A DNA stretch of 64,000 nucleotides from Planctomycetaceae bacterium (GTDB lineage Bacteria; Planctomycetota; Planctomycetia; Planctomycetales; Planctomycetaceae): positions 71,499-135,498 of the forward strand of contig JAWKTY010000017.1 of the NCBI GenBank assembly GCA_041398865.1, read 5' to 3'. Shown piece by piece: positions 48,786 through 60,962 of the stretch. The notes beneath the pieces are model-generated. The model worked only from the letters and a program-made list of their open reading frames with translations. It was not told the origin of the DNA and did not search any database. Each line of letters opens with the position of its first letter. Position 1 is the stretch's first letter. A program made the translations under genes and the position numbers.

Positions 48786-49692
48786 ATGATCAAGCCCTAT
48801 CAGCATGCGGACTACATCGAATTGTCTGTTCATTTTCGGTGTAATCTGAAGTGTCAGCACTGCATGATTCTGGACAGCATGCACTGGCTGAAACCCGCAG
48901 ATGATGCGGAATTCGAAGCTCTGCTGGAAGAACAGCGTCGCGAACAAAAATGGAAGGGCCTGATTCTGACCGGCGCCGAAGTGACGCTTCGGAAGGATCT
49001 GCCCGACCTTGCTGTGCGAGCTCGTTCGGCTGGCTTTGAACGAGTCGGATTCAGAGCCACGCGATGCGACTGGCCGACCCCGCCTACTGCGAGAATCTGG
49101 TCGCCGCCGGCATTGATGAATACTTCATCAGTGTCACCGCCGCCGACGCTGAGACTCACGACAGGATCACCGAGGTCCCGGGATCGTTTGAGAAAACCAC
49201 ACGAGCCCTGCGCAATCTCGACCAGATTCCGGGAGTTCGGCTGATGACGAATACGGTGGTGACTCGGTTGAGTTACCGGACGGTGCCGGAGGTGATTGAC
49301 CTGTTCAGCGATCTGAAGCAGCTGATTCAGATGGACTTCTGGGGCTACTGGCCCATGGAAGAAGATGGCAATCCGGAACTGCTGGTGTCGCATCTCGAAG
49401 TGCGGCCATACCTGAAAGAACTCATCCGACGAGCTCGGCGGCTGATCGGTATATCGAAATCAAAAACTTTCCGGCCTGCCTGCTGGGCGAGGACGCTCGG
49501 GTTGTGATCAATGACCAGCCCGAACTTCGAACAGATCCCAGGTTCTGGACGGAATTCAATCGCAACGGATTTCATCAGTGTGCGTATCGCGACGTGTGCG
49601 GTTCGAATCAGTGCCTGGGACTGAATCGAGCCTATGTGAATCGTTACGGCTGGCTGGAAGACGTGCTGTCACCCATGCCACGAGCCGCGTGA
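48786..49692 (+). CDS. Radical SAM protein (two frameshifts, ~49050 and ~49440), ~302 aa when repaired
   Basis: HFRCNLKCQHCM (CxxxCxxC), LTGAEVTL, ETHDRITEVPGSFEKT, NFPAC and C-terminal QCAYRDVCGSNQCLG across three frames. Confidence 0.88.
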
Positions 49693-49817: not shown

Positions 49818-52775
49818 ATGGACCGAGTCTCAGACAACCGAATTCAGGCGAACTCAGCCAAGCATTCTCTGATTGTGGTCGGAGGTGGCACGGCAGGGTG
49901 GATGACGGCTGCGCTGCTGAGTCTGAATCTGCGGCCGAAAGAGTGCAGTATCACGGTGGTGGCTGAAGACGATTCCGGCATCGGTGTGGGGGAAGCCACG
50001 ATTCCGCCGATTCTGAGACTGCTGAGGCATCTGCGGGCAGACGAGGCCGAGTTCATGCAGGCGTGCGACGCCACATGGAAACTGGGCATTCAGTTTTCCG
50101 ACTGGAAGACCATCGGCCATGACTACTGGCACCCCTTCGGAATATGCGGAGCTCGCATCGACGGTCGTGACCTGTTTCCCTACTGGCTGATGGAAAAGGA
50201 ACGGCCTTATCAGTCGTATTCGCTGCAGTGCGCCGCTGCCGTCGCCGGGAAGAGTCCTCACGCCCGGAATACTCGATCGCCCATTGCCGCTTCCGGAAGC
50301 TACGCCTTTCACCTGAACGCTCGAAAACTCTCCGCGTGGCTGCAGCAGCAGGCGACGGCTCGTGATGTTCAGCACGTTCGCGGACAGGTTGTTTCTGCAG
50401 AACGCAGTCAGACGGGCGATCTTACAACCGTCACGCTGAACAACGGCCAGGCACTGTCCGCGGACTTCTTTGTGGACTGTTCAGGTTTCGAATCCGTTTT
50501 GATGCGAAGCACGATGCAGGATCCTTGGATCGATGCCGGTGGCCACCTGCTGTGTGATCGGGCAGTCGCCGTCCGAACGCCGGGAACGCCGCTGATTCCT
50601 GCACACACCCGGTCGCTGGCGCTGACGGCCGGATGGAGCTGGGAGATTCCGCTGTTCAGTCAGCGCGGACTGGGCTACGTCTACAGCAGCCGTTTTGTGT
50701 CCGACGATGATGCATGGCGGCAGCTCATGCGAGCTCATCGGCTGAACGAAGACGGCGTGTGGGCTCCGCAGTTTCTGAAGATGGCCGTCGGTCGCCAGAC
50801 GAGCTTCTGGAAGCAGAATGTTCTGGCCGTCGGTCTGGCAGCCGGGTTTGTCGAACCGCTGGAATCCACCGGCCTGCATCTGGCTCAGGTCGGCATCGAA
50901 CGTTTTCTGGACCTGTTTGCCATCAGCGGCGACATGTCCTCGGTTCGCGACCTTTACAACCAGGAAATGACAGCTCTGTTCGACGACGTGCTGGACTTCA
51001 TTCAGCTGCATTACTTTCTCAGTCAGCGTGAGGATGCCTTCTGGAAGGCCGCACGAGACCTGCCACTTCGTCCGGCTCTGCAGCATCGTCTGCAGCTGTT
51101 TGATGATTCGGGTACTCTGGATGCGCGCCCGCCGGAAAGCTTCCCGGAGAGCAGTTACTACGCGGTGCTTGCCGGTCATCAGCGGATGCCGAAACGTCCT
51201 CCGGCGCTGGCCCTGGCTGTGGATCGGGAACGCCTGACAGTGGTAATGCAGGCCATTCAGGATCAGAATCGATCCGCTCTGCGAGGCCTGCCGCTGCATG
51301 AGGAAATGCTGAGACACGTTCACGGTTCTTCCCTGGCGCGACTTCCTGAAATGTCGGCAGCCAACTCAAAACTCAGCCGTATCGCGATGGTCTGCCTGAC
51401 TCCGGCCGTCGACAGTCACGAACATGACGGAGCCGATCTTCCGTCATACGGAATCCATCGCGTCCTGGCGGCAGTTGTTGCTCATCCGGACCTGTCCGAC
51501 GTTGAGATTCAGCTGTTTGACCTTGAAGTCGCCGATGTGAACGGCTACGTCGATGACCTGCTGGCCTTCGATCCGCAGATCATCGGGTTCTCGCTGTTTG
51601 TCTGGTCGATGGATTGCCTGATTCAGGTGGCCAGGACAATCAAACAGAAGCGGCCGAACTGTGTGATTGTTTTTGGAGGCCCGTCTGCCCGACCTCAGCT
51701 GCTGGACCTGCCACACTATCGCCAGGCCATCGATTACGTCGACGCCGTCGTGACTCGGGAAGGCGAAGAAACCTTCTGCGACATTGCTCTGGCGGTTCGC
51801 AATCGGCGAAGCACCGTCAGTATGTTTGACACTCTGAAGCATGTGTCCGGACTGGACCTGCCTACGCTGCTCGGCTGGCAGAATACCGGCTTTCGAACTC
51901 CACCGGAGAACCTGGATTCGATTGTCTCGCCCTACCAGATGGGCCTGATGAATTACCAGAGCGTCGGCTATCTGGAATCATTTCGCGGCTGTCCGATGTC
52001 CTGTGCCTTCTGCGAATGGGGAGCGAAGGACATCTCGAAGGGCTGCTTTTCGGAAGACTATCTGACTCGTGAACTGGAAGCTCTGCAGGCCAACGGCTGC
52101 CCTGCAGTGTTCAACGTCGACGCCGGACTGAATCTGAATGCCGCCGCCTTTCGCAATCTGGCCAATGCGGAAAAGAAGGTCCGATTTCTGAAGGACATTC
52201 AGCTGTGGTGCGAAATCTATCCGTCAAAGATTCGAGATGAACACATCGAATTTCTTTCGGAATGCGGACCGTCGTATCTGGGCGTCGGGCTGCAGTCATT
52301 CAATCCGGATGTGCTGAAACGCCTGCAGCGACCCTATGGTCGCGAGAACTTTGGTCCGGCCATTGAACGGCTGTCGTCGGTCGCAGCCAACATTGACGTA
52401 CAGATCATTTACGGCCTGCCAACGGATACCTGGGACGGCTTTATCGAAACGCTCAGCTATGCCCTGACGCTGCCGGTGACCGTTCGTATCTACCATTGTC
52501 TTGTGCTGCCGGACGCGCTGATGACTCGCGGGCTGCCGGAATGGGAAATGAAGTACGAACCGTACACGCTGTCGATGCAGTCGTGCGTCGGCTGGTCAGA
52601 ACAGGACCTGCTGGATATGCGAGCCATGCTGACTCGCGAGGCTCTGGCCTGCGGCGGGACGGCCGGTGACTTCTGGTGGTCGTTTCCACCACCGTCGCAG
52701 CGGACCACCATTCCGAATGTGTCTCAGCGTCACTTTGTTCCGGCGGCTGCTTCCGGAGTTCGAAAAAGTGCCTGA
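49818..52775 (+). CDS. Flavin-dependent (tryptophan halogenase family) halogenase in frame with a B12-binding radical SAM domain
   Basis: aa 1-511: GGGTAGW, GVGEAT, DATWKLGIQF, GWSWEIP, FVEPLESTG. aa 512-985: FSLFVWS, FGGPSA, REGEE, RGCPMSCAFCEW, GLQSF. Confidence 0.88.
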   Translation: MDRVSDNRIQANSAKHSLIVVGGGTAGWMTAALLSLNLRPKECSITVVAEDDSGIGVGEATIPPILRLLRHLRADEAEFMQACDATWKLGIQFSDWKTIGHDYWHPFGICGARIDGRDLFPYWLMEKERPYQSYSLQCAAAVAGKSPHARNTRSPIAASGSYAFHLNARKLSAWLQQQATARDVQHVRGQVVSAERSQTGDLTTVTLNNGQALSADFFVDCSGFESVLMRSTMQDPWIDAGGHLLCDRAVAVRTPGTPLIPAHTRSLALTAGWSWEIPLFSQRGLGYVYSSRFVSDDDAWRQLMRAHRLNEDGVWAPQFLKMAVGRQTSFWKQNVLAVGLAAGFVEPLESTGLHLAQVGIERFLDLFAISGDMSSVRDLYNQEMTALFDDVLDFIQLHYFLSQREDAFWKAARDLPLRPALQHRLQLFDDSGTLDARPPESFPESSYYAVLAGHQRMPKRPPALALAVDRERLTVVMQAIQDQNRSALRGLPLHEEMLRHVHGSSLARLPEMSAANSKLSRIAMVCLTPAVDSHEHDGADLPSYGIHRVLAAVVAHPDLSDVEIQLFDLEVADVNGYVDDLLAFDPQIIGFSLFVWSMDCLIQVARTIKQKRPNCVIVFGGPSARPQLLDLPHYRQAIDYVDAVVTREGEETFCDIALAVRNRRSTVSMFDTLKHVSGLDLPTLLGWQNTGFRTPPENLDSIVSPYQMGLMNYQSVGYLESFRGCPMSCAFCEWGAKDISKGCFSEDYLTRELEALQANGCPAVFNVDAGLNLNAAAFRNLANAEKKVRFLKDIQLWCEIYPSKIRDEHIEFLSECGPSYLGVGLQSFNPDVLKRLQRPYGRENFGPAIERLSSVAANIDVQIIYGLPTDTWDGFIETLSYALTLPVTVRIYHCLVLPDALMTRGLPEWEMKYEPYTLSMQSCVGWSEQDLLDMRAMLTREALACGGTAGDFWWSFPPPSQRTTIPNVSQRHFVPAAASGVRKSA

Positions 52776-54189
52776 TGTCGTGCCGTCAGCATGTCATTCC
52801 ACCAAGCGGTCCGGTCGCCGGATCGTGCTGGTGGCCATGTATCCGGCTCGCAATCCGGCCATGCCGGAATTCATTTCCAATCACGGAATTCGCATGGTCG
52901 AAGCGACTCTGCGAGCGTCCAGCCTGCCGGGGCTGGAGGTGACCGTTTTCGATCTGCACGACGCTGTCGCGGACGACCTGCTGCAGGCCATCACCGACAT
53001 CGATCCGGACGTGGTCGCGTTTTCCGCGTATCTCTGGTCGTTCCCGCTGTTTGCTGATGTCGCCGTGCGCCTGTACCGTGATGATCCCCGGCGGGTTGTG
53101 CTGCTTGGCGGTCCTTCGGCTCATCCGGCCATGCTGGATCAGCTACCGTTTCACGATCTGCGATCCGCTTTCGACGCGCTGATTGTGGGAGAAGGCGAAC
53201 ACACAATTCTGGAACTGATCAGTCTCTCCGATCGCAGTGCCTCAGCGATCAGCAATGTGCGAGGCATCGCTCAATGGAATGGTCGAGCGTGGCATCAGAC
53301 CGCGAAACGGCCTCTGTCGGACCTGAACGAACTTCCGTCGCCCTATGAAATGGGATTGGTGCCGCCAGGCGGTTTGGGTGTGCTGCAGACCTATCGAGGC
53401 TGTCCGTATACGTGTTCCTTTTGTGAATGGGGAACCATGGAGTCGCCGAAACGGGTTCGATCGGCCGACAGTCTGGCTCGCGAATTTCACGAGATGGCCG
53501 ACATCGATGTTGATGGAGCTCTGCTGGTGGACGCCGGACTGAACCTGAATGCCCGGGCATTCGAACAACTGGCCCTGGCAGCCGAAACAACCGGCTTCTT
53601 CCGTCACCGACGCCTGATTTCCGAAGTGTACCCCGCGAAGATTCAGGAAACGCATCTGCGATTTCTGGAGGACGTCGGTGAACCACTGATCGGCATCGGG
53701 CTGCAGTCGTTCGACAACGACGTGCTGGCTCATGTCGAGCGTTCGTTCGAGGAAGACCGGTTCGTCGCCAATGTTCAGGACCTGACATCAGTGGCTCGCG
53801 TTGCGATTGAAATCATCATGGGGCTGCCTGGCGATTCGCCGGAGAAGTTCCGCGAGAACTATTATCGAGCTCGACAGTTCCCGTGTGCTTTGCGAGTCTA
53901 CCACTGCTGCGTGCTGCCATCCGCTCTGATGGTGCGGTCGCCACCGGAACACCAGCTGAACTACGACCCGGTGACGCTGAAGATTCGTTCGTGCATGGGC
54001 TGGACTCAGGACGACATTCACGACGCATGCGAATTTCTGAACGGCGAAACCCGAACTCAGGCCGGCCAGATCGGTGAATACTTCTGGGTCTTTTCGACGC
54101 CTCAAAACGCAGCCCGTTTTACGGAAGATCATTTCGCGATTCGAAGCGTCCGAGCACCGCTTTCTGCTGAGAGGGAAAGGATTCCGTAG
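52768..54189 (+). CDS. B12-binding domain radical SAM protein (class B methyltransferase-like)
   Basis: GTG start with GGAG upstream, overlapping the previous stop; FSAYLWS, LGGPSAHP, GEGE, RGCPYTCSFCEW, GLQSF. Confidence 0.9.
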   Translation: MPDVVPSACHSTKRSGRRIVLVAMYPARNPAMPEFISNHGIRMVEATLRASSLPGLEVTVFDLHDAVADDLLQAITDIDPDVVAFSAYLWSFPLFADVAVRLYRDDPRRVVLLGGPSAHPAMLDQLPFHDLRSAFDALIVGEGEHTILELISLSDRSASAISNVRGIAQWNGRAWHQTAKRPLSDLNELPSPYEMGLVPPGGLGVLQTYRGCPYTCSFCEWGTMESPKRVRSADSLAREFHEMADIDVDGALLVDAGLNLNARAFEQLALAAETTGFFRHRRLISEVYPAKIQETHLRFLEDVGEPLIGIGLQSFDNDVLAHVERSFEEDRFVANVQDLTSVARVAIEIIMGLPGDSPEKFRENYYRARQFPCALRVYHCCVLPSALMVRSPPEHQLNYDPVTLKIRSCMGWTQDDIHDACEFLNGETRTQAGQIGEYFWVFSTPQNAARFTEDHFAIRSVRAPLSAERERIP

Positions 54190-54191
54190 GC

Positions 54192-55058
54192 ATGACAGAG
54201 ACTCTTCAGCAATCGCCTGTCCGCCGGCAACTCGGAACTCCTCAGGCGTTTTTCCGCCATCTGGAACTTCACGCCGATCAGGCCGATCTGTGTTCGCATG
54301 TCATCAGTGAACTGCGATCCGGCAGCCTGACGGGAATTGTTGTGCGGGGAGTTTACGACGAAGGCTTCATGGCAGATGTCACACAGCGTCTGGAAGCTCA
54401 TGACCCGCCGTTTCTGAAAACCATGTTTCCGGAGAAGTTTCGGTCGTGGTTTTACGGCCGGAATCTAAATCTGATGGGCACCGATCCCGCCACGTATTTT
54501 CAGCAGGCAGCCGAATTTCAGCAGCACATGCAGCAGCTGTTTCCCGAGAAACGAGGGTTTCAGCAGACGGTGATGAAGCTGTTGTCGGAACTGGACGGCG
54601 GAAGACCCTATCGAGCGGCTCCGGGCCCCGATGTCGGTCAGAGTTACATGCCGACGACATTTCGGGGCCATGCGGAAGGCGGCTACATTCCGCCGCACTG
54701 CGACAATGAGCAGTCCGTTCGCCCGGCCTATGAACATCTGGCAACGATGGTCTCACCTCACATGTATTCGATGATTCTGATGATCGCGGCTGCCGACGCA
54801 GGAGGAGATCTGGAGGTCTTCGATTACCACATCGAACCGCAGGAAGCCGGAGAACGTACCGGAGCCATCGCCGGGAAAGTTGACCTGAATCAGCTGTCCT
54901 CCGTGCAGATTCGGCTGCAGCCCGGAGACATGGTGATCGTCGATTCCGGACGCTATCTGCATCAGGTAACTCCCGTGATCGGCCCGACGACGCGGTGGGT
55001 CGCCTGCAGCTTTATGGCTCATTCCCGGGAACGAAATGCCGTCTACTGCTGGGGATGA
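54192..55058 (+). CDS. 2OG-Fe(II) dependent oxygenase
   Basis: YIPPHCDN (HxD), GGDLEVF, PGDMVIV, YLHQVTPV (distal His), RWVACSF (2OG-binding Arg). Confidence 0.85.
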   Translation: MTETLQQSPVRRQLGTPQAFFRHLELHADQADLCSHVISELRSGSLTGIVVRGVYDEGFMADVTQRLEAHDPPFLKTMFPEKFRSWFYGRNLNLMGTDPATYFQQAAEFQQHMQQLFPEKRGFQQTVMKLLSELDGGRPYRAAPGPDVGQSYMPTTFRGHAEGGYIPPHCDNEQSVRPAYEHLATMVSPHMYSMILMIAAADAGGDLEVFDYHIEPQEAGERTGAIAGKVDLNQLSSVQIRLQPGDMVIVDSGRYLHQVTPVIGPTTRWVACSFMAHSRERNAVYCWG

Positions 55059-55062
55059 TGCC

Positions 55063-55902
55063 ATGACAATTCTGACGCGTGCAGCACACAGATTCCCGGC
55101 TTATTTCGATCGACTGATTGAATCATTTCACGCCGGTCACTCAGGACGCCATGCGCATCTGGGATACTGGCACCCGGCACCTGAGACCGAAACGTCAGCG
55201 ATTGGTTTCGAAGAAGCTCAGGCAGCTCTGAACGAGCACCTGATTGCCATGACAGTACCGAGATCCGGAAGCCGAATTCTGGACGTCGCCTGTGGATTTG
55301 GCGGTTTGATTCAGCAGTTGGACCACGTTGTGTCCGGAACCGAACTGCATGGCATTAACCTTGATGACCGTCAGCTGAACATCTGTCAGCAGTTGAGATC
55401 AAATCATGGCAACGTTCTGCGCTGGCAGGAAGCGGATGCCTGTGATCTGCCGTTTGCCGATGCGATGTTTGATCTGATCTTTTGTGTGGAAGCCATCTTT
55501 CATTTTCAATCACGCGAGCAGTTCCTTTCGGAAGCGAAAAGAATTCTTCGACCCGGCGGTCGGCTGCTTCTGACGGATTTCACGCTGAAGGAATCGTCCG
55601 CTCTGCCGGCTTTCTGCATGGAAGCTGTTCTGACCGATGGTTACGGGCCCTGGCCGGACCCCTGGTGTCGCCGGGGAAACGTGTTTCAGCTGCTGAATGC
55701 TCAAGGCTGGCAGAACATCGTTTGCGAAGACCTGACTGCGGAAACACTGCCAACCTATCGCCATATTCTGCCCCGCGGAATGGATTCGGCCCGTGATCCC
55801 GGCGATCCCGCCACTCGCTCAGCTTTGATGCTGCAGTGGCTTCAGCAGAACGGCCATCTGACCTATGACTGCATTGCGGCACACACCGGAGCAAGCCTAT
55901 GA
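55063..55902 (+). CDS. Class I SAM-dependent methyltransferase (HxGYW type)
   Basis: HAHLGYW, ILDVACGFGG, ADACDLPFADAMFDLIFCVEAIFHF, RILRPGGRL. Confidence 0.9.
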   Translation: MTILTRAAHRFPAYFDRLIESFHAGHSGRHAHLGYWHPAPETETSAIGFEEAQAALNEHLIAMTVPRSGSRILDVACGFGGLIQQLDHVVSGTELHGINLDDRQLNICQQLRSNHGNVLRWQEADACDLPFADAMFDLIFCVEAIFHFQSREQFLSEAKRILRPGGRLLLTDFTLKESSALPAFCMEAVLTDGYGPWPDPWCRRGNVFQLLNAQGWQNIVCEDLTAETLPTYRHILPRGMDSARDPGDPATRSALMLQWLQQNGHLTYDCIAAHTGASL

Positions 55903-56489
55903 CACACGTGATTGCCATCTGCGGAACGATGGGAAGCGGAAAATCCACCGCGATCGCCCGGCTGCAGTCAAGACTGCCCAACTGCGAAACCCTGTTTGAA
56001 GACGATTTCAACCCGGCTCCCCTGAAGTCACTGGATGAAGTCCAGGAGTGGTTCGAAGCGGGCGGACGAGTCAGCGAATTTGATCTGTCAGCACTGGTTC
56101 AGCAACTGCGTGCGGCCACGTCTGCCGGGCGAGCCATCGTGCTGCTGGAAACGCAGTTCGGCAGAATGCATCCGGCGCTCAGACCCCTCATTGACCTGCA
56201 GTGCTGGATCGATGTGGAACCCGATCTCGCACTGGCCCGCAAGGTGACTCAACTGGCCCGACAGTTCGCCGGCGACGCGGAATCGCGCAGCGCTGATGCG
56301 GCAGAAGCATTGCTCTGGCTGGCGGAATTCTGCGACGGCTATTCTCAAATCACTCGAAAACTCTTCCTGCAGCAGCGAACGAGCGTTGGCCGGCAATCAG
56401 ACATTCAGATTTCCGGACACGCGTCCCCCGATGATGTCTGCGATCGCATCTGCCGATCACTGCCGTCATGGATGGCGGATGCCGCGTGA
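55899..56489 (+). CDS. P-loop small-molecule kinase (uridine kinase-like)
   Basis: VIAICGTMGSGKST (Walker A), VLLETQFG, WIDVEPDLALARK; ATGA overlap with the upstream gene. Confidence 0.75.
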   Translation: MTHVIAICGTMGSGKSTAIARLQSRLPNCETLFEDDFNPAPLKSLDEVQEWFEAGGRVSEFDLSALVQQLRAATSAGRAIVLLETQFGRMHPALRPLIDLQCWIDVEPDLALARKVTQLARQFAGDAESRSADAAEALLWLAEFCDGYSQITRKLFLQQRTSVGRQSDIQISGHASPDDVCDRICRSLPSWMADAA

Positions 56490-56601: not shown

Positions 56602-58155
56602 ATGACAACATCAAAATCCGTGAAACAGACTCGGACACTGAGACTGCCCAAGCGAGTGGTCGTGCTGGGAAATGATGTCGTTGCCTGGATGGCAGCCGCG
56701 ATGCTGGCGAAGCATTTCATTTCGCTGCAGGTTCGCACCACGATCTGCCCGGGTGAAAATTCCGTCCCGCCTGGTCATGAGACGTTTGTTTCATCGCCTT
56801 CGCTCACGGCGTTGATTCGCAACTTCGGTGCTGACGAACACGACGTTCTGAAAGCGTGCAACGGGACCTATCGACTGGCAACTCAGTTTTCTGACTGGGC
56901 CAGTGAAGGCCGCGACTTCTGGCAGCCTCTGGGCCACGAAGAAATTCGCATGGCGGGCCTGCCGCTGTTTGACATTTGGGCCGCCGAACGCATTGCCGGT
57001 CGGCTGCTGCGTCCGCTGCATTCGTACACAGCTCACTGGACCGCATCGCTGGCCGGAAAAGCGCCGCATTCGTTTTCCGGAACGTCTCCACTGGCAGCTT
57101 CGGGGCAATACGGTTTTCATGGCGAAGCTGCCGGACTGGCTGGCTGGTTTCGAGCGACCGCGCTGAGCCTCGGCGTCGAGGAAATTTGCGGGCCGCTGGA
57201 TCAGACATTCGTCAATGGTCGCGGCGGATTGGCGCAGGTGAAGCTGACATCCGGCCAGGCGGTTCCAGGCGACCTGTTTCTGGAATGCCGCCCCGCACTC
57301 GCCGGCGATGAGATAGAGGACCTGAGCGACCGGTTTCTGTTCGATCGCCGAGTTTTCTTTCGAACCCCGGGAGCTCGCCGGATTCATCCTTTTACTCGAG
57401 TGACAGCCCATGACGCGGGCTGGTCCCGAACTGTGCCGCTGGCGGCTGAAGTGGAACACAGCTACGACTTCTGCAGTCGATTCCAGACTGATGATGACGC
57501 GGGAAAGTATCTCCGCAGCGTCGTCGATGGGCGTCTGGACAGTCCGCTGGATTCTGCGCCGGAACTGCACTTTGCGGACGTTCGACATTTTCTCCGGCGG
57601 GTGATCTGGAAAGACAACGTCCTGCATCTTGGCCGAAGTGCTCAGCAGCTGGAACCGCTGGCGGCCAACGACATGCACCTCGATCTGGCGGGAATCGAAT
57701 TGCTGCTGGAACTGGTCCCCGACCGCAGCATCGCTCGGTCAACTCGGGATGAGTATCTCAAGCGCAACACGGCCGTGCGGCAGGATGCGGTTCGCGAACT
57801 TCTGCTGCACCACGCCCTGCTGAATCGCAGCGATGCGCAGACCTGTGCGACCATCGCTGAAGCCGCTCGAACGGACGAGGTTCAGCAGCTGCTGGACGTT
57901 TATGAGTCTACCGGTGTGGTGCGAATTCACGCTCCGGAATCGACTCCGGCCGATCATCTTCGCAGTCTGCTGGCCGGTTGCCACCGCATGCCGCAGCGTC
58001 CGGTGATGGCGATTCGAAGTCTGGAGACAGGGCGACTGCAGCAGGCACTGCGAGACCTGGTGCAGCATCACGAAGCCACAGTGAAAGACCTTCCGCTGCA
58101 TGAAGAACTACTGGACTGGATTCATTCCGGTCCGTTTCAGAAGCAGGCGGGCTGA
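56602..58155 (+). CDS. Tryptophan-halogenase-family paralogue with degenerate catalytic motifs
   Basis: Aligns with the first halogenase end to end (QFSDW..DFWQP, LHSY, APHS, YGFH, LPLHEE), but has VVVLGNDVVAW, NGTYRLATQF, GWSRTVP and LEPLAAND. Confidence 0.85.
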   Translation: MTTSKSVKQTRTLRLPKRVVVLGNDVVAWMAAAMLAKHFISLQVRTTICPGENSVPPGHETFVSSPSLTALIRNFGADEHDVLKACNGTYRLATQFSDWASEGRDFWQPLGHEEIRMAGLPLFDIWAAERIAGRLLRPLHSYTAHWTASLAGKAPHSFSGTSPLAASGQYGFHGEAAGLAGWFRATALSLGVEEICGPLDQTFVNGRGGLAQVKLTSGQAVPGDLFLECRPALAGDEIEDLSDRFLFDRRVFFRTPGARRIHPFTRVTAHDAGWSRTVPLAAEVEHSYDFCSRFQTDDDAGKYLRSVVDGRLDSPLDSAPELHFADVRHFLRRVIWKDNVLHLGRSAQQLEPLAANDMHLDLAGIELLLELVPDRSIARSTRDEYLKRNTAVRQDAVRELLLHHALLNRSDAQTCATIAEAARTDEVQQLLDVYESTGVVRIHAPESTPADHLRSLLAGCHRMPQRPVMAIRSLETGRLQQALRDLVQHHEATVKDLPLHEELLDWIHSGPFQKQAG

Positions 58156-58173
58156 TTGCGGTCATCAACAGCG

Positions 58174-59193
58174 ATGTCGACAGATTACCTGGCTATTGAA
58201 CCGTTTCTGAAAGATGCTCTGCAGGGGCGAGCTCTGCAGAGTGCCTTCGATCTGGGAATCATCGATCGGCTGGCCGCGGCGGACGCCGATGTCACGGTTG
58301 ACGCGGCGCTGAAGGGTCTCGACTGCGATCGACCGGGAGGAAGTTTTCTGCTGCAGGTTCTGGCGTCTGCCAATGTCCTGCGACTGCAGAATGAACAGGT
58401 TCAACTCACGAATGCCTTTCGCAACGCGCTGCGGTTTCGGGATCTCATGATGACCAAGCTGCAGTTCGCTCAGCTGGTCGCGGCCGACTATTTCGAATGC
58501 CTGCCGCAGCTGTTGAGATCTGCGGAAGACTTCATGGGGGCCGCAAAGCTGTTCGAACTGTTCGATTACAGCCGCTGCATTGAGATCACGACCGGCAACT
58601 GCATGCAGGCCTCGCGCTGGATGCAGCTCACCACGATGCTGACTCGATACGAAGGGCCTGTCTGCTGCGACGCATGGGATTTTGGTCGACATCGACACAT
58701 GCTGGATGTTGGAGGCAACAGCGGAGAATTCGCGATGCAGGTCTGCCGCCGCGAACCGACTCTGACCGCCACGGTTCTGGATCTGCCGGTGGTTTGTCAG
58801 GTCGGAATGAGGCACCTTCAGCACCAGCCGGAAGCGAATCGCATTCAGTTTCACGCCGCCGACATGGTGCATGACGATTTTCCAGTCGGCGCAGATCTGA
58901 TTTGCTGGAAGTCCGTGCTGCACGACTGGCCGGATTCGGAAGTTCAGCACCTGCTGCAAAAGTCATTCGACCAGTTGCCCGTCGGAGGCCGCATCCTGAT
59001 TTTCGAACGCTGCCAATGGGATTCCAGTACCTTTCCCGTGTCGTATGGCCAGCTGCCGGTTCTGCTGTTCTTCCGATCCTACCGCAGCCCCGAAACCTAC
59101 GACCGGTGGCTCACAAACTGCGGCTTCCGAAACGTCACGACGAAATTCGTGCAGCTTGATGTCCCGTTTGTGTTGATGAGTGGGGAGAGGTAG
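58174..59193 (+). CDS. O-methyltransferase (Methyltransf_2 type)
   Basis: LQSAFDLGII dimerisation domain, MLDVGGNSG, VLDLP, AADMVHDDFP, KSVLHDWPD, GGRILIFE. Confidence 0.9.
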   Translation: MSTDYLAIEPFLKDALQGRALQSAFDLGIIDRLAAADADVTVDAALKGLDCDRPGGSFLLQVLASANVLRLQNEQVQLTNAFRNALRFRDLMMTKLQFAQLVAADYFECLPQLLRSAEDFMGAAKLFELFDYSRCIEITTGNCMQASRWMQLTTMLTRYEGPVCCDAWDFGRHRHMLDVGGNSGEFAMQVCRREPTLTATVLDLPVVCQVGMRHLQHQPEANRIQFHAADMVHDDFPVGADLICWKSVLHDWPDSEVQHLLQKSFDQLPVGGRILIFERCQWDSSTFPVSYGQLPVLLFFRSYRSPETYDRWLTNCGFRNVTTKFVQLDVPFVLMSGER

Positions 59194-59236: not shown

Positions 59237-60046
59237 TTACCCCGCTCCCTGATAATAGATCGTCAGAAACGGCTGGTCGCTCCGCGTTCGGCCGGCGGAG
59301 ATGTGGCCGACGGTGGCGGCGGCTGTCTTGTGGAGCCATTCGTTCACTTCGTTGTCGGCACAGGTGAAGCGTTCGGCGATGACATGGACGAGGTCCGTGA
59401 TGAGGGCCACGGGCTGCTGAGCGGCGTAGACATTCAAGTCGAATGATCGACGGTCACTGCCTTCTTCCGTGACTTCCAGCAGTCGCATCTCGGCCTTGTC
59501 CGTCTCGCATTCCGGTTCCAGTCTCTGGGCAAGTTGCGACAGTTCAGGTCGCAGTTCTTCCGGCGCCTCGTTCAGAAAGCACTCAGTCAGTGACGACGGA
59601 CCCTGCGGATGAACGTTTCGATAGCGACTGACCACCGCCAGGGACGTGTCATTCATCGACCACTTGAACCCCAGAAACATCAGCCGACCGTCATCGGCAG
59701 ACGTTGCCGGAACGGATGACGACAGTTCCAGGTAGCACTTGCCGATCGCGGTGCTGACTGAGTACTCAAAGCCGAAATGAACAAAGGCCGCCGATCGGAA
59801 ATAGCGACGGATGGCCGTCAGATGCGCGATCGGACTGCTCATCGCTCGGCAGATCTGCAACACTTCATCCACTGAACTCAGTTCTTCAATGGCGGCAGTC
59901 GGCACAGAAAACAGAGCTCGACGCGGTTCGAACATGCCAGGCTGCAGGCGCACGGAACGTTCCGACAGCACGGGCAGCTGCCGATCGATCAGCCACCGTC
60001 GAAGTTCGGCAAGGCCGCTGTTGTCAAACCAGTCCGCCGGAATCAT
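59237..60046 (-). CDS. Hypothetical protein, possible ABBA/PT-barrel fold
   Basis: 269-aa ORF with five putative beta-hairpins separated by helical segments; the fold is inference from pattern only. Confidence 0.6.
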   Translation of the reverse strand: MIPADWFDNSGLAELRRWLIDRQLPVLSERSVRLQPGMFEPRRALFSVPTAAIEELSSVDEVLQICRAMSSPIAHLTAIRRYFRSAAFVHFGFEYSVSTAIGKCYLELSSSVPATSADDGRLMFLGFKWSMNDTSLAVVSRYRNVHPQGPSSLTECFLNEAPEELRPELSQLAQRLEPECETDKAEMRLLEVTEEGSDRRSFDLNVYAAQQPVALITDLVHVIAERFTCADNEVNEWLHKTAAATVGHISAGRTRSDQPFLTIYYQGAG

Positions 60047-60062
60047 AAATCCGCATCTTCCT

Positions 60063-60962
60063 ATGGCTGCACCGTTTTCTCATCAGTCCGTCGATCAGCG
60101 AATTCTGAACGAAAGAATTCGCCCGGGCGACCCTGCGCTGAATTACTGTTTGTGGCCGTACCAGCCGCCGACAGTTCCGGACGGAAAACTGCGAGCCTCC
60201 AGTTTACTGCTGAAAGCCATTCAGGAGATGCCCGCCGCGGACTGGCTGCTGCAGACGGTGGATATCATTCAGGCCGGCCTGGGTGATTTTCGCAGTGTGT
60301 ACGGAATTAAGCAGATTGATGGCCGGTGGTCTCTGGAAGTGTATCTGTACGACTACGAACGGGAAAACCGAGCCGTCTCGATTGAACGCCTGAATGCGGC
60401 CTGTGCCGGTCAGATCTCCCTTCCCGCGACAGTTGGAAGTCATGTGCCGTATTTCATGTTTTCCTTTGACCTTGATGCTCGGGTCGCTCAGGCCAACGGA
60501 CGCATCGAAGTCGTTCATGTTTACATCGGCAATCCGGGAAGCATGGTTTCCAGCGGCATCAGTTACGGGTTTACCCGGGACCCCGACGCCACCGAACTGG
60601 AAAACCTGTACTTCTTCTTCGCCGCCGACAACCGAGCGGAAATCCACGACAAGGTGACCTGTGCGGCCTGTCTGAACGATCCGCAGACGCTGCTGGCGAC
60701 CGTGCTGCCAGAGCAGTTGATGACATGCCACACCATCTGCCTGGCCAACAAGCGATTCAGCAACACGGCGTACTTCTCCGGAATCAACTTGCAGCAGCTG
60801 ATCTGGTTTCTGCAGTGGCAGCAGTATTCGAAATCCTTCTGCCGCTTCATCGACGATCACGCCCACGAACTTGACCATCTGCTGTACGACGTTGGAGTTG
60901 ACTACCAGGTGCGTGATCAGCAGATCCGGTTTACAAAATCCGGAGTCTACGGAGTCTTTTAA
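60063..60962 (+). CDS. Hypothetical protein, possible ABBA/PT-barrel fold
   Basis: 299-aa aromatic-rich ORF from the ATG at 60063 (NYCLWPY, LEVYLYDY, PYFMFSFD, GNPGS, ENLYFFF, YFSGI, KSGVYGVF). Confidence 0.65.
   Translation: MAAPFSHQSVDQRILNERIRPGDPALNYCLWPYQPPTVPDGKLRASSLLLKAIQEMPAADWLLQTVDIIQAGLGDFRSVYGIKQIDGRWSLEVYLYDYERENRAVSIERLNAACAGQISLPATVGSHVPYFMFSFDLDARVAQANGRIEVVHVYIGNPGSMVSSGISYGFTRDPDATELENLYFFFAADNRAEIHDKVTCAACLNDPQTLLATVLPEQLMTCHTICLANKRFSNTAYFSGINLQQLIWFLQWQQYSKSFCRFIDDHAHELDHLLYDVGVDYQVRDQQIRFTKSGVYGVF

Follow-up and report, generated by a model that had tools for sequence, protein, structure and literature searches.

Two paired protein families with a predicted prenyltransferase-barrel fold in a radical SAM gene module of Planctomycetota and other bacteria

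The window analysed here is a stretch of 64,000 nucleotides of contig JAWKTY010000017.1 from a Planctomycetaceae bacterium (assembly GCA_041398865.1), and the subject of this work is a pair of adjacent genes in it whose products, called protein A and protein B, are predicted to adopt the fold of the prenyltransferase (PT) barrels. Protein A (59237-60046, minus strand), which corresponds to its open reading frame (ORF), has 269 residues and is a minimal protein of this predicted fold from a large unannotated family. Protein B (60063-60962, plus strand), the second such protein, has 299 residues from a start codon placed by homology, and the two start codons are separated by a divergent spacer of 16 bp (60047-60062). 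The ORF of protein B runs from 59811 to 60962, but homology begins only at the ATG at 60063, both in the alignment of the relatives and in the homology-guided gene set. The start was therefore set at 60063, given that the longer reading would overlap the gene of protein A by 235 nucleotides and has no support in the relatives. The divergent layout is repeated in Fuerstiella-type relatives with gaps of 4-60 bp. A sequence-only reading of this DNA had reported two ORFs of about 270-300 residues at this place and had listed ten pairs of short motifs as candidate beta-hairpins. All ten pairs are found in the two proteins, and the sizes and coordinates hold apart from the start of protein B and the 16-bp divergent spacer.

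Both genes are real and conserved. For protein A, 66 homologues were retrieved in a word-indexed search, and an exhaustive HMMER search of 1.84 billion cluster representatives (clustered at 50% identity) with the profile of the A family gave 1101 representatives at E<=1e-3, 557 of them at E<=1e-30. For protein B, 337 homologues were found, with 159 confirmed genomic relatives in GTDB species genomes. The B family is the more conserved, with a mean column identity of 56% and 78 positions conserved at 90% or more, versus 25 such positions in a broad alignment of 55 A-family sequences. No sequence relation between A and B could be detected by BLASTP or hhalign, and the idea that they are paralogues was rejected on these grounds. 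Some JGI records name A-family proteins of 272-277 residues (P0020, P0028, and P0039) "tryptophan halogenase", a name that seems to have been carried over by mistake from the annotation of the gene next door.

The structures of both proteins were modelled with AlphaFold2 in a template-free manner, from alignments of 49 (A) and 56 (B) sequences, and the strands were assigned with DSSP. The models are of high confidence, with a predicted local distance difference test score (pLDDT) of 92.9 and a predicted template modelling score (pTM) of 0.91 for protein A, and of 93.3 and 0.91 for protein B, and each contains exactly ten strands in five hairpins. In protein A, the strands span residues 27-35, 38-49, 86-96, 99-108, 122-130, 137-145, 188-194, 200-205, 245-253, and 259-266, and in protein B, they span residues 78-85, 88-96, 132-137, 151-156, 164-170, 178-187, 224-230, 234-241, 275-284, and 287-298. 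Between the hairpins, one to three helices are found in both models, except between hairpins 2 and 3 of protein A, where there are none. The twenty strand motifs of the sequence-only reading all overlap strands of the models, with eighteen wholly inside a strand and the other two covered at six of eight and five of six residues. ABBA enzymes consist of five alpha-alpha-beta-beta repeats whose ten antiparallel strands, ringed by helices, enclose a solvent-filled lumen (PMC5371340, PMC7973389). Ten strands in five such repeats, presumably closed into a barrel, are seen in the models of both A and B.

The comparison of the models with solved structures points to the same fold class. With protein A, Foldseek gave 49 matches in the PDB at E<=1e-3, all with a probability of 1.00 and all to prenyltransferases of the ABBA, DMATS, or cyanobactin type, and the top 50 matches are all ABBA prenyltransferases. 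The best match is PagF (1.9e-6), and the others include CdpNPT, PriB, TleC, PirF, FunA, 6-DMATS, DciF, KgpF, NotF, LimF, AmbP1, and FamD1. With protein B, 21 matches at E<=1e-3, likewise with a probability of 1.00, are all ABBA/PT-barrel prenyltransferases, as are the top 26. FamD1 is the best of them (1.5e-6), followed by AmbP1, AmbP3, TleC, EpzP, NphB/Orf2, and AtaPT, with PatF among the weaker ones. For both proteins, the next fold classes, porins and serpins, have probabilities below 0.15, so that similarity to solved structures is significant for PT-barrels and for no other fold. The assignment of A and B to the PT-barrel fold is, therefore, well supported by the predicted models, and the five-hairpin barrel with helices between the hairpins, proposed from the letters alone, is what AlphaFold2 and Foldseek returned.

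The residues that are conserved in the two families fall mostly on the strands. In the broad alignment of the A family, E29, S31, R43, E94, K103, Y105, E107, K128, W129, Y142, R199, S201, D203, N205, Y207, H248, R255, and Y264 are invariant or nearly so. The positions conserved at 90% or more, which also include L45 and G92, are nearly all polar or charged, lie on strands, and are spaced two residues apart, in the groups E29/S31, R43/L45, G92/E94, K103/Y105/E107, and R199/S201/D203/N205/Y207. The B family shows the same pattern on its strands, where K83, E92, Y94, Y96, S134, D136, Y154, Y168, Y183, T224, C226, K230, Y237, S239, D276, D280, K292, and Y296 are among the positions conserved at this level. 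This set holds three lysines (K83, K230, and K292) and seven tyrosines. Conserved acidic residues number four in A (E29, E94, E107, and D203) and five in B (E92, D136, E180, D276, and D280), and the B family further carries the invariant motifs NYCxWxY, YIGNPGSxVSSGI, ENFYFFF, TICLANK, and LDHLLYDVGVDY. No (N/D)DxxD motif is present in protein A or protein B. In the lumen of ABBA enzymes, which also lack this motif, lysine or arginine together with tyrosine holds the diphosphate, and a glutamate handles the acceptor (PMC5371340, PMC7973389); in CloQ, these are Lys54, Arg66, Lys120, Lys279, Tyr174, and Tyr233 with the catalytic Glu281 (PMC5371340; PMC7973389). The pattern of conserved residues in A and B agrees with the published description of such active sites and is consistent with a catalytic lumen of the ABBA type.

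The genomic setting of the pair was followed in 88 loci, of which one is the window itself, seven lie on metagenome contigs, and 80 on genome contigs. The genome scan was made with the B alignment, and the loci were analysed by profile searches and clustering. The B family is present in all 88 and the A family in at least 79, and A adjoins B in 79 loci from Planctomycetota, Alpha-, Beta-, Gamma-, and Deltaproteobacteria, and cyanobacteria. In two of the remaining nine, B lies at the start of the contig, and seven have no detected A-family gene near B, namely five Planctomycetota metagenome-assembled genomes (MAGs; L016, L018, L021, L023, and L024), a genome labelled uncultured Chitinophaga (L022), and a Pseudomonadota MAG (L062); several of these seven were searchable upstream of B. 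The loci L016, L018, and L021-L024 adjoin DUF1501 and/or ABC-transporter genes, and the context of L062 is different. The carriers include Planctomycetota, Acetobacteraceae, Burkholderiales, other Alpha- and Gammaproteobacteria, Syntrophales, Geobacter, and cyanobacteria (Anabaena, Nostoc, Trichormus, and Synechococcus). Maricurvus nonylphenolicus KU41E, Anabaena azotica SJ-1, and Nostoc sp. FACHB-152 are carriers that can be cultivated. As a rule, the genes follow one another as DUF3467, O-methyltransferase, radical S-adenosylmethionine (SAM) protein, A, and B, or else A, radical SAM, and B, with genes that overlap or nearly abut. The inverted orientation of A occurs only in the Fuerstiella-like Planctomycetaceae, the group of the closest relatives of the window.

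The partners that recur around the pair are an O-methyltransferase of the Methyltransf_2 family (56 loci), a radical SAM protein of about 310 residues (53), a P-loop kinase-like protein (31), a stand-alone DUF3467 protein, a WelO5-like oxygenase, and a class I methyltransferase (22 each), a protein of the Trp-halogenase family (20), and a B12-radical SAM protein (18). Natural fusions tie the A-B core together, with A fused to B in P0249 (hhalign to the B profile, E 2e-100), L028, L030, and L066. A is also fused to the radical SAM protein (L057 and L069), to a halogenase-like domain (L077), to an FAD-binding domain (P0216), and to DUF3467, the latter in many representatives and once as DUF3467-A-A (L080). 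Fusion to PqqD or RRE domains, which the sequence-only reading had named as something to look for, does not occur among these partners, which are DUF3467, radical SAM, a halogenase-like domain, and each other. The linkage to halogenases that it had expected is seen in Planctomycetota, where homologues do adjoin genes of the Trp-halogenase family, but these 20 loci are mostly of that lineage. The widespread partners are the radical SAM protein and the O-methyltransferase, and the halogenase linkage is lineage-specific. The fact that A and B are an almost obligatory pair, conserved across phyla together with radical SAM and O-methyltransferase, indicates that they are probably a new branch of the predicted PT-barrel fold. 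They probably form an obligate pair and a physical complex.

About one third of the loci encode a giant protein next to the module, of which over 1200 residues fall inside the locus and whose full length reaches about 11,000. These proteins, found in several phyla, are rich in alanine, glycine, serine, and threonine, free of cysteine, and beta-helix-like, or are of the RTX type, sometimes with TolC or HlyD alongside (L001, L003, L004, L011-L013, L031, L036-L038, L043, L049, L051, L060, L067, L078, L079, L086, and others). Some loci have extra genes for TolC, HlyD, GAF-HlyD, a daptide-like intramembrane protease that contains an RRE, a SecA-like protein, or SapC. A recurrent trio lies next to the module and to stand-alone DUF3467 genes, and consists of GAF-HlyD, of a protein in which a PqqD/RRE-like domain is joined to a daptide-like intramembrane metalloprotease as well as HlyD, and of a SecA-like protein that is truncated (L026, L035, L047, L048, L062, L070, L074, L076, L077, L081, L084, L085, and L087). 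The SEC-C/SWIM (YchJ-like) families were matched by a single member of alignment A3 in the NCBIfam scan. The small DUF3467 proteins were considered as precursors of peptides that are made on ribosomes and altered after translation (RiPPs), which found no support, as their alignment shows a folded domain whose tails vary and are unremarkable; no structure or literature was found for DUF3467.

In the window, most of these partner types are encoded upstream of the pair on the plus strand. Next to protein A lies the O-methyltransferase (58156-59193), with the Methyltransf_2 and dimerisation domains in Pfam and weak BchU/FlxJ-like matches below the NCBIfam cut-offs. It is preceded by a flavoprotein of the Trp-halogenase family (56602-58155; Pfam Trp_halogenase, E 3e-57) which, compared with solved halogenases, has an arginine at the position of the catalytic lysine, with TYRLATQF for T-x-K-L-G-I-x-F, and in which GEATIP and WxWxIP are degenerate. 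Among the Fuerstiella-type orthologues, the residue at this place is K, R, H, Q, or C, and several are without the lysine. Judged by these motifs, the flavoprotein is probably not a halogenase. For this reason, the prenylated halo-aromatic product suggested earlier is not established, and the annotation of the adjoining gene as tryptophan halogenase is to be regarded as unreliable. A P-loop kinase-like protein of about 200 residues (55899-56489) resembles uridine kinases, with weak Pfam matches to AAA_18/PRK and a PRK08233-like match below the NCBIfam cut-off. This gene is kept with the A-B pair in several phyla, directly after B in Proteobacteria too, and its product might supply a phosphorylated substrate or donor.

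Further upstream, Pfam identifies a class I SAM methyltransferase of UbiE/CMAS-like type (55036-55902), an accessory tailoring enzyme, and an oxygenase that depends on 2-oxoglutarate and iron (Fe/2OG), of the WelO5 family (54192-55058; Pfam WelO5, E 1.2e-74) with an H-x-D facial-triad motif. In the WelO5-family proteins of the module, HxD is found in 20 of 22, as HCD in the window, and not HxG/A, which from established knowledge of Fe/2OG halogenases points to a hydroxylase type rather than a halogenase. A B12-binding radical SAM protein (52666-54189, start uncertain) is C-methyltransferase-like, with Pfam matches and KedN5/HpnR-like matches below the NCBIfam cut-offs. It follows a protein of 985 residues (49818-52775) in which Trp_halogenase (Pfam, E 2e-133), B12-binding, and Radical_SAM domains are fused. 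This fusion, a singleton among the 88 loci, keeps GVGEATIP, the catalytic lysine (ATWKLGIQF), and WxWxIP, so that its halogenase part looks canonical. The radical SAM partner of about 310 residues (48792-49689) is split into ORF fragments, and tblastn with the orthologues of L005, L015, L027, and L068 covers it at full length by co-linear pieces in frames 1, 3, and 2. The frame changes lie near 49046 and at about 49450-49480, one of them beside a run of five adenines. Either the gene is a pseudogene, or its sequence contains two indel errors. Downstream of the pair, the window encodes an OYE-like reductase and MTHFR, and not a giant protein.

The explanation that we favour, and to which we give about an even chance, is that A and B together are a two-barrel alkyl or prenyl transferase of the ABBA type that acts on a substrate processed by radical SAM chemistry. 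The two proteins would stand at the centre of a widespread module for biosynthesis or modification, whose other core members would be the radical SAM protein, the O-methyltransferase, the DUF3467 domain or protein, and the P-loop kinase-like protein. The Fe/2OG hydroxylase, the class I methyltransferase, the B12-radical SAM methylases, and the halogenase-family flavoproteins would be optional tailoring enzymes. The conserved polar strand residues would line the barrel lumen and form the active site, with a glutamate as base or anchor and a cradle of arginine, lysine, and tyrosine for the diphosphate leaving group. At least one barrel would then transfer a prenyl group, or another group derived from an allylic or alkyl diphosphate, to an electron-rich acceptor, in the simplest case from dimethylallyl, geranyl, or farnesyl diphosphate. 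The radical SAM protein, the methyltransferases, and the oxygenase may work on that substrate either ahead of this transfer or following it. The acceptor may be a small aromatic metabolite, a peptide, or one of the adjoining giant secreted RTX/beta-helix proteins. A special form of this proposal, which we regard as unlikely, is that an A-B heteromer together with the radical SAM protein and a chaperone-like DUF3467 carries out the post-translational lipidation or alkylation of a protein. The likeliest substrates would then be the giant RTX/beta-helix proteins or the cargo of the type I (TolC/HlyD) or SecA-like export genes that adjoin the module in many phyla, and, if true, this would amount to a bacterial system of protein prenylation not known before.

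Several observations weigh against a transferase of this kind. Against solved PT-barrels, the models reach only moderate TMq scores, of 0.46-0.59 (A) and 0.36-0.53 (B), at root-mean-square deviations of 5-10 Å, which, together with an identity of about 10%, makes A and B distant and compact variants of the PT-barrel. A lumen-facing orientation of the conserved residues and a cradle geometry for the diphosphate are presumed. At E<=10, no Pfam or NCBIfam model is matched by either protein, and no significant sequence link of A or B to any PT family was found in these databases or with profiles against PDB sequences (E>0.3), so that neither belongs to PTase_Orf2, Trp_DMAT, or TIGR04445 by profile. 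None of the 56 members of the B alignment matches a PT family in Pfam; on the NCBIfam side, the scan for B covered the protein of the window. In the A family, one of 55 members, different from the A of the window, matches TIGR04445 at E 0.12. Two A-family profiles searched against PDB sequences matched the LynF/TruF/PatF peptide prenyltransferase 9vtd at non-significant values (E 0.96 and 0.34); it ranked last of three matches in the first search and at the top in the second. In this alignment, the segment ERS...RRAL of A, with the invariant E29 and R43, lies over ESS...ARFG, and there is one further co-linear stretch. The B-family profile gave no match in PDB sequences. Moreover, no isoprenoid-diphosphate synthase recurs within 8 kb of B in the 88 loci, we know of no ABBA prenyltransferase pathway that requires a radical SAM protein as an obligate partner, and the module may be damaged in this genome, given the frame-split radical SAM gene. 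Of the earlier inference, "prenyltransferase-like or repurposed barrels", the structural part is strongly supported.

Some of these points fit another explanation, which we consider possible, if rather doubtful, namely that A and/or B are PT-barrels repurposed for a catalysis other than prenyl transfer (for example cyclisation, a lyase or hydrolase reaction, or the transfer of another group to the substrate of the radical SAM protein), with the lumen as reaction chamber. This would account for the lack of significant sequence relation of either family to known prenyltransferases and for the lack of prenyl-donor genes nearby. The obligate partners, moreover, are a radical SAM protein and an O-methyltransferase, and radical SAM-A fusions occur. 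The four (A) or five (B) conserved acidic residues are beyond the need of a pure diphosphate cradle, and the P-loop kinase-like gene that is conserved alongside could provide another phosphorylated substrate. On the other hand, every solved Foldseek match at E<=1e-3 is described as a prenyltransferase, the conserved arginine, lysine, and tyrosine with glutamate are the inventory of ABBA prenyltransferases (PMC5371340), and the sole recurring weak sequence match is to a peptide prenyltransferase.

It may also be considered that one or both barrels, more likely A, are without catalysis and serve as a substrate-binding or scaffold subunit by which a peptide, a protein, or a hydrophobic intermediate would be presented to the radical SAM protein and the tailoring enzymes. 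The adaptor-like fusion of A to varied partners (DUF3467, radical SAM, a halogenase-like domain, B, and a second A) speaks for this, as do the much lower conservation of A when compared with B and the presence of PatF, an inactive cyanobactin homologue, among the weaker structural matches of B. Nonetheless, both families keep invariant charged or polar residues on their strands across phyla, which favours chemistry over mere binding, and the B family is exceptionally conserved, so that we hold a purely non-catalytic role to be improbable. That the hairpins are instead a chance feature of spurious or unrelated ORFs, with no barrel at all, has practically no probability left. Nothing was found in favour of this possibility, which is refuted by hundreds to more than a thousand conserved homologues, high-confidence template-free models, significant Foldseek matches to a single fold class, and a synteny that is kept across phyla.

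In late-stage prenylation, ABBA/PT-barrel enzymes are biocatalysts in wide use, and their known families have chiefly been those of actinomycetes, cyanobacteria, and fungi. The present analysis adds two large unannotated families of predicted PT-barrel fold from Planctomycetota, Proteobacteria, cyanobacteria, and other phyla, with over 1100 clusters at 50% identity in A alone. Should they prove active as transferases, a new type of pathway would be defined, possibly with a new class of donor or acceptor; in the opposite case, these would be the first large families of PT-barrels to serve another function. Either way, a concrete and testable function can be proposed for widespread "hypothetical" genes.

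When compared with known systems, protein A has its best structural match among the cyanobactin F-family enzymes (PagF, PirF, KgpF, LimF, and DciF, with LynF/TruF/PatF; TIGR04445), which are also compact, open PT-barrels of about 280-300 residues. This match is PagF, and the profile alignment sets the invariant glutamate of strand 1 and arginine of strand 2 of A over a glutamate and an arginine of the enzyme. Glu51 and Arg65 of PagF may be the equivalent residues, which is a lead. The identity is 9-13%, with no model match at an accepted threshold. Unlike the cyanobactin enzymes, A comes with a second, unrelated barrel in 79 of the 88 loci and with a radical SAM protein, and has no helices between hairpins 2 and 3. 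A cyanobactin cluster is also not what surrounds it, since neither PatA/PatG proteases nor a PatE-type or other recognisable precursor peptide is among the recurrent neighbours in the 88 loci. The highest TM-scores to A (0.55-0.59) belong to PT-barrels of the DMATS type (CdpNPT, PriB, TleC, CymD, and 5-/6-DMATS; Trp_DMAT), which have a catalytic glutamate near the start of the barrel and arginine, lysine, and tyrosine as diphosphate ligands. These enzymes have 340-460 residues, with about 350-460 in the Trp_DMAT domain, carry additional helices, and work alone, with free indoles or dipeptides as substrates, whereas A and B have 269 and 299 residues and neither matches Trp_DMAT, so that membership in the DMATS type was not found.

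The set of tailoring enzymes around A and B is similar in its classes to that of proteusin-type RiPPs such as polytheonamide, where B12-radical SAM C-methylases, a radical SAM epimerase, an Fe/2OG hydroxylase, and an N-methyltransferase are found. In contrast to proteusin clusters, in which we know of no PT-barrels, the A-B loci showed no precursor of the NHLP or Nif11 type, and their DUF3467 proteins look like folded domains and not like leader-core peptides. A link to the planctomycete pathway of 3,5-dibromo-p-anisic acid was considered and rejected, given that the cluster proposed for it consists of a chorismate lyase and a Bmp5-like brominase and contains no barrels. In the literature searched, no described system combining PT-barrels, radical SAM proteins, halogenases, and Planctomycetota was found, nor any description of the A and B families or of the module.

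Protein B, in turn, is structurally closest to the Orf2/NphB-CloQ type (PTase_Orf2), whose members FamD1, AmbP1, AmbP3, EpzP, and NphB are its best matches and share with it a size of about 300 residues and ten antiparallel strands; their lumen is lined with lysine, arginine, and tyrosine, for which the conserved strand residues of B would be a putative counterpart. It differs from them in its own invariant motifs, with an identity of 7-11%, a TMq of 0.36-0.45, and no Pfam match. Hapalindole-type clusters combine two prenyltransferases with a WelO5-type Fe/2OG enzyme, much as two predicted barrels and a WelO5-like neighbour lie together in the window, but this neighbour has the HxD motif of the hydroxylase type and not of a halogenase, and the loci have no isonitrile synthase or Stig cyclase genes. 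What is known in this system is the fold, and what is new are the A and B sequence families, their obligate pairing, and their combination with radical SAM, O-methyltransferase, and DUF3467.

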